Assembly: GCF_003334385.1 (NCBI RefSeq)
Contig: NZ_QOWN01000076.1
Source of the DNA: Escherichia coli
GTDB lineage: Bacteria; Pseudomonadota; Gammaproteobacteria; Enterobacterales; Enterobacteriaceae
Reading direction: 5' to 3' (one strand)
DNA: 6,564 bases
Shown: in pieces, positions 2,746 to 4,572 of the stretch
Position numbering within the stretch: the stretch's first letter is position 1
Layout: the number at the start of each line of letters is the position of its first letter
Notes under the pieces: model-generated
Told to the model about the DNA's origin: nothing
Databases searched by the model: none
The model's input: only the letters and a program-made list of their open reading frames with translations
Translations under genes and position numbers: made by a program

Positions 2746-2952
2746 TTACGGACGGGACTGTGCAATACGCGCCTGCAGCCAGGCTTCCACTTCACTTTTC
2801 AGCCAGCGGGAGCTGCGCTCCATTTTGATGGGGGCAGGAAAGCCCCCATCTTTGATGAGTTTGTAAAACCACTTATCGGTTAAGCCGGTAAGTTGAGTGA
2901 TAAACGCCATGTCGACCATCTGGTCATCCATCAGCGAAACAGGGGTAGCCAT
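2746..2952 (-). CDS. alpA: AlpA-family (phage/integrative-element) transcriptional regulator / excisionase-like HTH protein, 68 aa
   Basis: The C-terminal 68 aa of ORF 2746..3186 read MATPVSLMDDQMVDMAFITQLTGLTDKWFYKLIKDGGFPAPIKMERSSRWLKSEVEAWLQARIAQSRP. The ATG at 2950..2952 (complement) is preceded by GGAGG (complement of about 2960..2964). The small size, helix-turn-helix-like core and the motif W-x-x-S-E-V-E-A-W-L resemble the E. coli AlpA C-terminus (W-I-E-A-E-I-D-E-W-L) as I recall it. The 78-codon upstream extension is Pro/Arg/Ser-rich and not protein-like. Confidence 0.75.
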   Translation of the reverse strand: MATPVSLMDDQMVDMAFITQLTGLTDKWFYKLIKDGGFPAPIKMERSSRWLKSEVEAWLQARIAQSRP

Positions 2953-3238
2953 GAGAATGTTCCTCCGGATGTTGTTAAACCAGCCGGTGTGGTCATGAAA
3001 ACAGCGCGCCACCTTCACTGGCATAACAACCGGGGAGAAACGTAAAAAATAATCGGGAATGTGGCTGTCCGGAGATAAACGGGGGGGATTGCGATGGCAG
3101 AGCCGTAGCGGAATCCCGGGTGGTTGTTGCGAAAAGATGCTTCCGCACGCACGCGCGATAAAGGAGGGAGGACTTTCGTGAGACAAGGGGAAAACTAGCG
3201 TTCTGATAATTGCAGAGTTGTTTTCGGAGGTGGTTACA

Positions 3239-3358
3239 GTGAGTCAGCCCGTTCCTGGCGAGGAGGAGACTGATATCACCGATGGGATAAGGCTGTCTGA
3301 TTGGTATTATAAATATAAGAAGTCATCAGAGAGTAACGTAAAGGATTTGCCAGAGTAA
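3239..3358 (+). CDS. Candidate small ORF (39 aa, MSQPVPGEEETDITDGIRLSDWYYKYKKSSESNVKDLPE), divergent from alpA; speculative
   Basis: GTG at 3239 with GGAGG (3226..3230) 8 nt upstream, in-frame stop TAA at 3356..3358. It is below the ORF-track size cutoff. No homology is recognised, and a short ORF next to a good SD can arise by chance. Confidence 0.2.
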   Translation: MSQPVPGEEETDITDGIRLSDWYYKYKKSSESNVKDLPE

Positions 3359-3399
3359 GCTAAGAGAGTAAATCTCTCCGGTAACAGAGCGCTGTGAAT

Positions 3400-3431
3400 C
3401 GTTCATGTATCAGAGTGCAAATACATGAACG
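3400..3431. repeat. 11-bp inverted repeat (CGTTCATGTAT / ATACATGAACG) with 10-nt spacer; candidate operator or RNA hairpin
   Basis: Read directly: 3400..3410 and 3421..3431 are exact reverse complements. There is no adjacent T-run on either strand. The arm sequence ATACATGAAC recurs at 4156..4165. Confidence 0.8.
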
Positions 3432-4155
3432 CTGATGCGTAAAATCAGCAGTGACACGCCAGCTCCCCCTGTGCCCATTCCTGTATAAGACATGAACTGA
3501 GCGTATTAATGCTCCTGCTCTGAGACTGAGCCGGTGAGTGAGGGGCTGAGAAATCCCTCTTGACACAGCTCTAAACCAGAAATACTTCCCCGGTTGTTGC
3601 GGTGCGTCCGGATCCCCGATAACGGAACACTAAGGCTGTATTGCGGGACACCGGGTAAGTGGCAGCCTGTAATGTGTTCTGTCAACGCCAGAAAAAATGA
3701 TTTTTCACACGCGTTATAGACTCACTCCTGTGGACCTGGAAGCCCGTAACTCTGCGGTTGCCCACCGACTGACGGAACTGACCGCAAACTTTACGATCGT
3801 GTTCCTGCTTCCTTCTGGTCACCTGAACTTTTAGCCAGCGCTACGATAAGTCCGGTGTTATCTGCACCGGAGGACCGGGAACATTAAGCGGTATAGCGAC
3901 AACAAAGAATTCGAAATCAAAAGGGAATGGTGCCGGAGGCGTGGGCGGTAATAGGCTGATTTTCAGGTATTACCGGCTTACAACGTGTGGTTGATATTGA
4001 GGGGCTGTGAGTTTCGCGTATTTGTCAGAAACCCAGATGAGTTTTCCTTTATGGGACGAAATAAGGCAGCGGCAATACCTGGAAAAATTTAATATGGTAT
4101 GAAGGAGAACCTGTCGGTTACGCTTAATATACACGGTACACTGTCAGCTCAGGGG

Positions 4156-4165
4156 ATACATGAAC
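4156..4165. repeat. Additional direct copy of the 10-mer ATACATGAAC (same as 3421..3430), just downstream of the zinc-ribbon gene stop
   Basis: Exact 10-mer match read from the sequence. A related 8-mer ACATGAAC is at 3490..3497. Chance recurrence of a given 10-mer in 6.5 kb is unlikely but not negligible. Confidence 0.5.
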
Positions 4166-4172
4166 CGTTATC

Positions 4173-4373
4173 TCACCAGCTACACAGTATACACACACTG
4201 ACGCTGACAGTAGTCAGCAGGACCACAATAATCAGCGCCAGCAGTATGGTAACGATACGGTCTGTATTCCGGTAGTAGCCGAAGGGGTCGACAGAACCAC
4301 AATACGGGCAACACACTGTATTATGAGTAATCGCGTTTCCACAGTCCCTGCACTTCTTTTTGCGTATCACCAT
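4173..4373 (-). CDS. Small zinc-ribbon protein with C-terminal transmembrane helix (66 aa)
   Basis: ORF 4173..4376 on the minus strand. The preferred start is the ATG at 4371..4373 (complement), with GAGGAGGGAG immediately upstream (AGGAGG about 5 nt before the ATG). The protein has two CxxC-type pairs (CRDCG ... CCPYCG) followed by a hydrophobic stretch IVTILLALIIVVLLTTVSVSVCILC. It is divergent from the YagK-like gene across a 200-bp AT-rich intergenic region. Confidence 0.5.
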   Translation of the reverse strand: MVIRKKKCRDCGNAITHNTVCCPYCGSVDPFGYYRNTDRIVTILLALIIVVLLTTVSVSVCILCSW

Positions 4374-4545
4374 CACTCCCTCCTCACAGCCTTACCCGTA
4401 ACCGATTTTTTACATTAAAAAAACAACGCTGAAAATTCAACCGTCAGTCCGGAGACGACCGTTCGGGTTATCACAGAGTGCCTGAGACAGTGTCCTGCCG
4501 GAGGTCACCTCAGGGGCTCTGCGCATTTTTTACGACGTGGTTATT

Positions 4546-4562
4546 CCGTATGAACCATACGG
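4546..4562. promoter_or_regulatory. 17-bp perfect palindrome CCGTATGAACCATACGG overlapping the Shine-Dalgarno of the YagK/YfjJ-like gene
   Basis: Read directly: 4546..4552 (CCGTATG) and 4556..4562 (CATACGG) are reverse complements with a 3-nt centre. The right arm overlaps GGAG (4561..4564), which is the SD for the ATG at 4573. It could be a dimeric-regulator site or an RNA hairpin occluding the RBS. Confidence 0.4.
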
Positions 4563-4572
4563 AGATTTAACC

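Follow-up and report, generated by a model that had tools for sequence, protein, structure and literature searches.

The window, a 6,564-nucleotide stretch of an Escherichia coli contig (NZ_QOWN01000076.1), contains a gap, 3187-4172, between two small genes. On the left is a gene for a 68-residue AlpA-like helix-turn-helix protein (2746-2952, minus strand; Pfam Phage_AlpA PF05930, E = 3.9e-7; a helix-turn-helix regulator in RefSeq), and the right edge of the gap is formed by an ORF, found in the ORF list and in RefSeq, for a protein of 66-67 residues with a zinc ribbon and a transmembrane segment (4173-4376, minus strand). The original prediction described alpA and the zinc-ribbon gene as divergent, but both are encoded on the minus strand, and the transcription of alpA runs away from the gap. 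What diverges from alpA is a plus-strand remnant of an hha gene within the gap, on which the zinc-ribbon ORF converges. In sister islands, a 118-nt insertion (locus L003), a 74-nt deletion (L004) or a frameshift (L021) interrupts the zinc-ribbon ORF.

The gap was as poor in ORFs as had been claimed. None in 3187-4172 exceeded 68 aa, and the longest that lay fully within it were 68, 59, 54, 46 and 45 aa. The 46-aa ORF at 3218-3358 was rejected as coding since 1-nt indels among sister loci break it, and so were the small ORFs in 3840-4172, all of which are broken by a 1-nt indel at about position 4084 between sister loci. The hha remnant accounts for approximately 160 nt, one sixth of the gap, and the remainder consists of a long hha leader and a 3' spacer. 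The gap is very probably the hha3-type locus of CP4/KpLE2-like E. coli genomic islands, with its coding part pseudogenized. The segment was present in 3526 of 5426 complete E. coli genomes, with a median of two copies and roughly 6,700 copies altogether; carriers of this exact allele include E. coli 2014C-4135 and O145:H28 RM13516. In an identical genome Ag43 was located 5 kb away. The alpA gene of K-12 CP4-57 has no long upstream spacer and was uninformative.

The hha remnant

The remnant (3667-3826, plus strand) was identified from the sole match in a six-frame HMM scan, from alignments and from the PGAP labels of sister copies. The scan for other pseudogenes in 2953-4172 found no family besides Hha, for which the match to NF008191 covered profile positions 22-57 of 72 (E = 0.002). 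The test for the Hha/YmoA family was based on NCBIfam NF008191 and Pfam PF05321, with a whole-protein cutoff of 90 bits. The intact sister protein Hha2 scored 100.7 bits with the same Hha HMM, and Hha3 66.1 bits. RefSeq annotates a shifted ORF, 3697-3834, as a 45-aa "hypothetical" or "HHA domain-containing" protein; it scored 18.9 bits, compared to the 90-bit curated cutoff of NF008191, and matched profile positions 29-57 of 72 only. No uninterrupted ORF of approximately 67-72 aa with all four Hha helices, a start and a ribosome-binding site was found in the window.

The alignments showed that this copy has lost its start, its ribosome-binding site and approximately 23 codons of the N terminus, and that the remaining sequence carries two frameshifting deletions, of 4 nt near 3781 and of 7 nt after 3817. 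The 4-nt deletion changes the frame after "...LTELT", so that the C-terminal residues remain in another frame only, and tblastn found the remnant spread over two frames. The ancestral stop codon is the TGA at 3824-3826. The region is colinear with loci that carry hha2 and hha3; in sister islands an intact hha2 (69 aa) or an hha3 (58 aa) gene occupies the same position, and in paralogous islands the RefSeq annotation has genes named Hha/YmoA or hha there. PGAP treats sister copies as pseudogenes of Hha/YmoA, either frameshifted or incomplete, and related copies were damaged further by a 107-nt deletion, an internal stop or an IS insertion. The suggestion that the gap holds a decayed gene was borne out for about 160 nt (approximately 3667-3826), but the gene was neither the repressor nor the integrase proposed as examples; it encoded an H-NS co-regulator of the Hha/YmoA family.

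The coding segment was 81% identical to hha3 over 3701-3826, and the remnant differed by approximately 19% from both live alleles, hha2 and hha3. None of the three published hha3 coding primer sites (4796 forward, reverse and the P2 arm) was found in the window at four or fewer mismatches. The remnant, a pseudogene set in hha3 flanks, belongs to a third allele lineage that has diverged further, and a divergence of 19% within flanks that are 99% identical needs a recombination event. A tblastn search of 32 spacer variants with K-12 TomB for a tomB-like gene or remnant 5' of hha gave nothing better than E = 3. The locus is now probably functionless in this strain, save for possible residual low transcription.

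The control region, leader and 3' spacer

The portion nearest to alpA of the control region between the divergent alpA and hha (2953-3317) ends in a conserved block, 3270-3317, that was kept in every variant and contains TGgTATTAT on the plus strand (3302-3310) and TATAAT on the minus strand (3312-3307). Positions 3293-3312 were 100% identical in 31 spacer variants; these variants and the other variant counts given here come from metagenome loci, a sample biased by its selection through an exact match to the 24-mer at 3935-3958. From 3318 onward, leaders of the hha2 and hha3 types part ways. A scan for -35 and -10 elements reported nothing at 2953-3317. Divergent promoters are probably located within the invariant, AT-rich 3270-3317 block or close to it, and 3318-3666 would therefore be an untranslated leader.

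This leader (3318-3666, plus strand) was 98.6% identical to that of L003, a locus with hha3, and 46% identical to that of L004, which has hha2, and the six-frame HMM scan found no protein remnant in it. Published primers also identify it as hha3-type: "4796 P1 UP" matched exactly at 3399-3418, which includes the left arm of the inverted repeat described below, and the "4796 P1" arm matched at 3623-3665 with 2 mismatches. The same primer set (Prieto et al. 2016, PMC4864382, supplementary table 1) links hha3, EC042_4796, to the locus type of L003 and the window, and hha2, EC042_4516, to the L004 type. It was previously found that hha3 mRNA is low but detectable, far below hha or hha2 mRNA, and that hha3 is linked to Ag43 islands (Prieto et al. 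2016, PMC4864382). The kind of locus is already known (EC042_4796 of Prieto et al. 2016, PMC4864382), and the window holds a decayed copy of it.

A hairpin (3850-3872, plus strand; -14.7 kcal/mol) lies approximately 25 nt past the ancestral hha stop and is not followed by a U-tract. In L004 its stem is retained with a loop 2 nt longer, and a common deletion of 3827-3933 takes it out. From there to the zinc-ribbon ORF lies a non-coding spacer (3873-4172), in which a long hairpin occupies about 3941-3977. The identity of the spacer between loci of the hha2 and hha3 types was 98-99.7%, similar to the 97-100% of the adjoining 4173-4572. The spacer was considered as an ultra-conserved 3' element and rejected as such: its identity equals that of the adjoining genes, most genomes lack part of it (only 1115 of 3484 retained 80% or more of 3840-4172) and a second, highly diverged allele of 3978-4256 exists.

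The repeated sequences

The repeats themselves were confirmed in every detail. Three exact copies of ATACATGAAC occur at 3401-3410 (minus strand), 3421-3430 (plus) and 4156-4165 (plus), the last of which, recovered by motif search, is 8-17 nt past the stop of the zinc-ribbon ORF. The first two belong to a perfect 11-nt inverted repeat (3400-3431), CGTTCATGTAT at 3400-3410 and ATACATGAACG at 3421-3431 with a 10-nt spacer, that would fold into a hairpin whichever strand were transcribed. A small palindrome (3431-3450), seen in the sequence and in folding, abuts it and consists of GCTGAT (3431-3436) and ATCAGC (3445-3450) separated by 8 nt. The motif search also located the related ACATGAAC at 3490, within a partial direct copy, AGACATGAAC (3488-3497, plus strand).

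The triple 10-mer together with the 8-mer is statistically unusual. The 10-mer with at most one mismatch had four matches, compared to 0.45 expected, a number reached in none of 200 shuffles. Three copies of any 10-mer on either strand of 986 nt were obtained in 4 of 2000 dinucleotide shuffles, and a perfect inverted repeat with arms of at least 11 nt and a loop of at most 20 nt in 1 of 300. All four exact ACATGAAC 8-mers in the 6.5-kb window lie within the gap. Elsewhere in the 25-kb island there was no exact 10-mer, only two one-mismatch matches in an IS66-element region downstream of the window. A viral contig, L008, has GTTCATGTAT-N10-ATACATGAAC; it is unrelated, and the match was taken as coincidence because the real repeats there are GAACC-N4-GGTTC boxes. 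No viral contig matched the conserved 24-mer.

The inverted repeat was perfect in 17 of the 31 spacer variants. It was missing from all ten hha2-type variants, and its left arm was broken in five (L036, L033, L011, L047 and the separately aligned L051), in none of which the right arm had changed to compensate. The copy at 4156 was present in 22 of the 31 variants, hha2-type ones included, and an alternative allele has a sequence beginning GATTCCTGA in its place. In hha2-type leaders the site homologous to 3488-3497 reads ACGTGAAC, the region near 3431-3450 has a different palindrome, GCTATC-CCT-GATAGC, and a related palindrome, ATACATGA-GT-TCATATAT, is found near the conserved block. The original prediction had named a frameshifted ordinary gene, with coincidental repeats and neither transcription nor conservation of the 10-mer sites, as the outcome that would speak against it; half of this was found, in that the gap does hold an ordinary gene with frameshifts and the 10-mers lack conservation.

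Discussion

Gained by horizontal transfer, hha3 is a paralogue of hha, which encodes a small protein partner of H-NS, the nucleoid silencer. It stands head-to-head with alpA across a spacer of approximately 700 nt and tail-to-tail with the small zinc-ribbon ORF. The ATACATGAAC inverted repeat would be a feature of the hha3-leader lineage, a quasi-palindromic segment that may exist in two alternative self-complementary states; two alternative palindromes, CGTTCATGTAT and GCATTCTGTAT, were observed. We infer that the repeat is more likely to be a templated strand-switch product, or no more than a hairpin local to the leader, than to belong to a set of conserved operators. The distant copy at 4156 is explained by neither decay nor templated mutation.

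The proposal of repeated operator sites makes the ATACATGAAC copies putative half-sites for a DNA-binding protein of the island, such as the AlpA-like helix-turn-helix protein, the Gp2-family protein or a 200-aa neighbour, that would govern both the divergent transcription of alpA and hha and the 3' end of the zinc-ribbon gene. The motif is enriched and palindromic and lies in a divergent control region, and ATACATGA-GT-TCATATAT of the hha2-type leaders is near the conserved -10-like block; a half-site shared for some binding protein is conceivable because those leaders hold this related palindrome. However, islands with near-identical alpA (96-97%) and Gp2 (98-99%) genes have hha2-type leaders without the inverted repeat, so the motif set is missing between the same two genes. 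The uncompensated loss of the left arm in L036, L033, L011, L047 and L051, the replacement of the 4156 site in the alternative allele, the confinement of exact copies in the 25-kb island to the gap, and a half-site spacing and orientation that are unlike between the leader types also make operators very unlikely. It would be a long shot that the ATACATGA(A/G) half-site, which forms palindromes of unlike arrangement in the two leader types and recurs past the zinc-ribbon ORF, is a candidate recognition element of an island regulator, for example the AlpA-like protein, or the core of a leader-RNA switch, and that it sets the expression of the hha paralogue and alpA.

A structured RNA is a very unlikely explanation of the repeat region, either as a hairpin pair in the hha3 5' leader acting on stability, termination or translation, or as an independent small RNA, with the 4156 copy as an alternative long-range or antisense pairing partner. 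The inverted repeat and the adjoining second hairpin fold at -21 to -22 kcal/mol on either strand (z = -2.0 to -2.6), a broken-arm variant still forms an alternative hairpin by other pairing, 3401-3411 and 4155-4165 have 11 nt of complementarity, and the reported low level of hha3 mRNA relative to hha and hha2 mRNA (PMC4864382) would fit such a structure. On the other hand, Rfam covariance models, including C4/CI and IsrK, gave no match at E <= 1 on either strand of the whole window. The RNAalifold consensus of both leader types was weak, -20.4 kcal/mol over 478 columns, and omitted the inverted-repeat hairpin; the apparent double changes in that alignment are not independent because there are only two effective lineages. 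Folding z-scores ranged from -0.5 to -2.7, no hairpin was followed by a U-tract, no terminator-like site was reported in the gap, and the window has no downstream ORF left to regulate. The claim of a non-coding RNA locus accordingly found little backing. It is still far less credible that 3401-3411 and 4155-4165 are the terminal inverted repeats of a non-autonomous insert of approximately 765 bp that brought in hha, or that 3421 and 4156, the copies in direct orientation, mark a target duplication or a site of recombination. GTTCATGTATC and GATACATGAAC are perfectly complementary, 743 nt apart and on either side of the remnant, and the nearest relatives of this hha outside the island are plasmid-borne. 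Nevertheless, loci of the hha2 type contain hha but not the left repeat, no empty-site junction was found among the E. coli matches, and no structural variant starts or stops at 3401, 3421, 4155 or 4165; the observed breakpoints were 3317/3318, approximately 3685, 3826/3934, 3977/3978 and 4256/4257. A cassette bounded by terminal inverted or direct repeats was rejected because the variant breakpoints never coincide with the repeats.

The reading of the gap as a decayed hha3-type locus is largely ordinary, because the island-borne hha3 locus is known and the 10-mer is confined to one allele lineage. It identifies an ORF-free kilobase of two thirds of complete E. coli genomes as the hha2/hha3 paralogue locus in varied states of decay. 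Its importance extends little beyond annotation hygiene. The 45-aa RefSeq protein is the frameshifted remainder of an hha gene, and where hha3 serves as a virulence marker, typing by PCR or BLAST will overlook such decayed copies or score them wrongly. The published hha3 itself is without the first approximately 23 residues of Hha, a point to consider in assigning functions to it. Were the repeats regulatory, they would offer a handle on the control of island-borne Hha paralogues and AlpA, and nothing found demands that they are; a half-site regulator or switch, if real, would couple H-NS/Hha silencing of the Ag43 island to the control of island excision.

Comparison with known systems

Among 100,044 species genomes, a search for relatives in other species by way of the Gp2-family protein turned up just two short contigs that look like contaminants. 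Nothing in the phage collection matched. Matches in the plasmid collection were limited to a few E. coli records, which seem to be misfiled or of chromosome size, and to coding-only similarity to plasmid hha. Relatives of Hha in Salmonella, considered as island homologues, proved to be genes of IncI plasmids. The likeness to the P4 immunity region (CI RNA, seqA/seqB/seqC) and to the C4 and IsrK RNAs is superficial: both settings involve an island of the P4 kind, a gene of the alpA/vis type and a long stretch without translation in which short repeats are complementary to one another, but the repeats in the window are upstream rather than downstream of alpA, are not conserved between island variants and match none of the Rfam C4, CI and IsrK models.

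The closest hha genes outside the island alleles are those of IncI-type plasmids of Salmonella and E. coli, which adjoin the exclusion gene excA and are 75-78% identical to Hha2; their similarity to the window is confined to the coding part, with none in the flanks in the plasmid collection. In the tomB-hha operon of K-12 (b0461-b0460), Hha is 60% identical to the intact sister Hha2, and the remnant aligns to residues 21-70, approximately. Unlike that operon, hha stands alone in the window behind a leader of approximately 350-400 nt, divergent from alpA and with no tomB-like remnant upstream.

The intact 69-aa hha2 gene (EC042_4516) has the homologous place in its islands, with alpA on one side and the Gp2-family gene on the other. 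It differs from the window in its full-length ORF (100.7 bits), its ribosome-binding site and its leader, which is only about 46% identical and has no 11-nt inverted repeat, but its 3' spacer is 98% identical and the block at 3270-3317 is common to both. Compared to hha3 (EC042_4796, enteroaggregative E. coli 042; PMC4864382), the window has a coding part that is 81% identical, with no usable start and without the F, R and P2 primer sites of hha3. The locus type is nevertheless the same: the leader is 98.6% identical to that of L003, and hha3 islands have in common with the window alpA, the Gp2-family gene, zinc-ribbon genes and a nearby Ag43.

Results

The gap between alpA and the zinc-ribbon gene (3187-4172, 986 nt) was as poor in open reading frames as originally predicted, the longest ORF wholly within it being 68 aa. 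The two genes were described as divergent, but alpA (2746-2952, Pfam Phage_AlpA) and the small ORF encoding a zinc ribbon plus a transmembrane segment (4173-4376, intact in the window) are both on the minus strand; it is a plus-strand remnant within the gap that diverges from alpA. Of 5426 complete E. coli genomes, 3526 carried the 986 nt; the median was two copies, and nearly all lay on the chromosome. In an identical genome (L001), the window lay inside a CP4/KpLE2-like island carrying yfjI, alpA, an inovirus-Gp2-family gene, two zinc-ribbon genes and IS66; Ag43 is 5 kb away on the left side, and the fec operon is on the right.

Six-frame translations of 2953-4172 revealed a single family, Hha, the partner protein of H-NS. 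For the ORF at 3697-3834, RefSeq gives a protein of 45 aa named 'hypothetical' or 'HHA domain-containing'. The same position in paralogous islands is occupied by a 58-aa 'Hha/YmoA family nucleoid-associated regulatory protein' (L003) or a 69-aa 'hemolysin expression modulator Hha' (L004). In alignments with the intact gene, the ribosome-binding site, start and ~23 N-terminal codons were gone from the window copy, which also had a 4-nt deletion near 3781 and one of 7 nt after 3817, so that the C-terminal KLYDRVPASFW was kept solely in another frame. Against the Hha profile HMM, which has a curated cutoff of 90 bits, Hha2 scored 100.7 bits, over the cutoff, the 58-aa hha3 form 66.1 bits (profile positions 27-71), and the window ORF 18.9 bits (positions 29-57). 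The equivalent copies in CFT073 and P393-F10 were annotated by PGAP as Hha/YmoA pseudogenes, frameshifted or incomplete. No tomB-like remnant was found upstream of hha. The suggestion of a decayed gene was right in kind, since a pseudogene remnant is present, but the family is Hha, not a repressor or integrase.

Strain 042 has two island-borne hha paralogues, hha2 (EC042_4516) and hha3 (EC042_4796), which are linked with pathogenic lineages and Ag43; hha3 mRNA is far below that of hha or hha2 (Prieto et al. 2016, PMC4864382). Both paralogues were tied to a duplicated flu-yeeR island region (Bernabeu et al. 2019, PMC6480617). The primers in supplementary table 1 of PMC4864382 were mapped onto the compared loci. 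L003 was matched by all hha3 primers and homology arms with 0-2 mismatches, and L004 matched the hha2 arms exactly. In the window, '4796 P1 UP' (TCGTTCATGTATCAGAGTGC) matched exactly at 3399-3418, the left arm of the predicted inverted repeat, and the '4796 P1' arm matched at 3623-3665 with 2 mismatches, while the hha3 forward, reverse and P2 sites were not found. The matches and the missing coding sites together indicate that the gap is an hha3-type locus whose coding part is dead.

The 32 distinct alpA-to-Gp2 spacers compared came from RefSeq loci and 39 metagenome contigs, a biased sample because the contigs were retrieved by an exact 24-mer from 3935-3958. The block at 3270-3317 was invariant among them and contains TGgTATTAT (plus strand) and a consensus TATAAT (minus strand), from which we infer candidate divergent promoters. 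From 3318, the hha2-type and hha3-type leaders, the stretches 5' of hha, part ways; the window leader was 98.6% identical to that of hha3, and either was just 46% identical to the hha2 leader. The remnant (3701-3826) had 81-82% identity to both hha2 and hha3, compared to 93% between those two, and its differences from hha2 at codon positions 1/2/3 were 4/6/12. Its flanks shared 98.6-99.7% identity with the hha3 locus, compared to ~81-85% for the wider segment 3667-3872, the remnant with its immediate surroundings. This sharply bounded mosaic, a diverged remnant inside near-identical flanks, implies an older, third hha pseudogene allele within homogenised flanks, and the mosaic would have arisen by gene conversion or recombination with that allele.

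Decay extended beyond the remnant. In the 3' spacer (3873-4172) every small ORF was broken by a 1-nt indel, 3827-3933 was lost in an abundant class that includes CFT073, at least 80% of 3840-4172 was kept in only 1115 of 3484 genomes, and a second, very different allele of 3978-4256 exists. Relatives showed an internal stop (L049) and an IS110 insertion (CFT073). Over its full length, the interval from alpA to Gp2 behaves like DNA in decay, the copies of which are kept alike by recent spread and recombination. The idea that the 3' spacer is ultra-conserved was rejected; its conservation did not exceed that of the genes that come next (97-100%). In the sister islands L003, L004 and L021 the zinc-ribbon ORF was broken by, respectively, an insertion of 118 nt, a deletion of 74 nt and a frameshift, and therefore seems dispensable too.

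Several features of the neighboring genes were also observed. Upstream of alpA, the tract at 3081-3087 is G7 in the window and G6 in the otherwise near-identical L001, which points either to a tract prone to slippage or to a difference in sequencing. The segment directly upstream of the annotated alpA start (2953-3023, minus strand) was 96-100% conserved and has an in-frame ATG (MPVKV...) that L004 shares, which might make AlpA 92 rather than 68 aa long, although compensating indels between alleles count against the longer form. The inovirus-Gp2-family gene (start 4573) has a Shine-Dalgarno sequence that is overlapped by a perfect 8-bp palindrome, TCCGTATG-AAC-CATACGGA (4545-4563); this palindrome was kept in every spacer variant examined and could serve as an operator or as a hairpin that masks translation.

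Repeats in the gap

The predicted repeats were all found: the inverted repeat of CGTTCATGTAT (3400-3410) and ATACATGAACG (3421-3431) with 10 nt between the arms, GCTGAT/ATCAGC (3431-3436 and 3445-3450), AGACATGAAC (3488-3497) and ATACATGAAC, a third exact copy (4156-4165). They are more frequent than chance, 1) the 10-mer with at most one mismatch had 4 matches against 0.45 expected, and 4 or more were reached in 0 of 200 shuffles, 2) of 2000 shuffled versions of the region, only 4 had three copies of any 10-mer, 3) perfect inverted repeats whose arms measured at least 11 nt arose in 1 of 300 shuffles, and 4) every exact ACATGAAC 8-mer in the window, four in total, was inside the gap.

One suggestion was that the repeats could be operator sites, but the motif set varied among homologous islands sharing alpA and the Gp2-family gene. 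The perfect inverted repeat occurred in 17 of 31 aligned variants. It was missing from the ten hha2-type leaders, several of which adjoin alpA and Gp2 genes 96-97% and 98-99% identical, respectively, to those of the window, and in four of the 31 and the separately aligned L051, GAAGCATTC-TGTAT replaced GAATCGTTCATGTAT in the left arm with no compensation in the right. The 4156 copy, found in 22 of the 31, was replaced in the alternative allele, and no exact copies were found elsewhere across the 25-kb island. These losses, uncompensated changes and replacement argue against the repeats being conserved operators of either AlpA or the Gp2-family protein. They account neither for the recurrence of the 10-mer at 4156 nor for a related palindrome in hha2-type leaders (L045, L029, L012), ATACATGA-GT-TCATATAT, which has ATACATGA in common with the window's repeat and comes after one or two tandem GAGATCAAAYACAT just to the right of the conserved block. 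A shared half-site retains a small probability.

The left arm itself varied. In the window (3395-3420) it pairs with the right arm, while the changed version (GCATTC-TGTAT; L051 2053-2080) folds into a hairpin of GCATTCTG and CAGAGTGC, the latter being the loop in the window. By sequence, the segment has two alternative self-complementary states, three clustered changes apart. This pattern is typical of quasi-palindrome templated mutation, and the two states look like products of such a strand switch. The same arrangement, GTTCATGTAT-N10-ATACATGAAC, also lies between genes on an unrelated viral contig from IMG/VR (L008, 8279-8308), flanked by two GAACC-N4-GGTTC boxes, probably a coincidence.

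A repeat-bounded cassette was rejected because no variant breakpoint coincided with the repeats. Phage sequences gave no match, and those of plasmids matched solely in the hha coding sequence. The proposed non-coding RNA was likewise unsupported. The Rfam covariance scan gave nothing at E<=1, which also ruled out a CI/C4/IsrK immunity RNA of the P4 type, an idea prompted by the P4-like islands. Single-sequence folding gave z-scores of -0.5 to -2.7. A local hairpin pair was stable (-21 to -22 kcal/mol) but had no U-tract, and no terminator-like site was reported in the gap. The RNAalifold consensus for both leader types was weak, at -20.4 kcal/mol over 478 columns, and left out the inverted-repeat hairpin, and its 'compensatory' counts were not independent because there were only two effective lineages.

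Relation to known hha loci

The observation of an ORF-poor gap with repeats was real, and the gap is a locus of an already known kind, hha3, in a pseudogenised state. The published hha3 is itself shortened at the N terminus (58 aa). In L003 (3962-4138) it has a GTG start, is missing roughly 23 residues from the Hha N terminus (profile positions 1-26), helix 1 among them, and scores under the NCBIfam cutoff, so that hha3 as a functional protein merits re-examination. Outside the E. coli islands, the nearest relatives of Hha2 are encoded by IncI-type plasmid hha genes beside excA. The products in L053-L059 have 75-78% identity to Hha2, and their genes adjoin the exclusion gene with hok and MqsA-like toxin-antitoxin genes nearby. 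This relationship suggests that the island hha paralogues are of plasmid origin.
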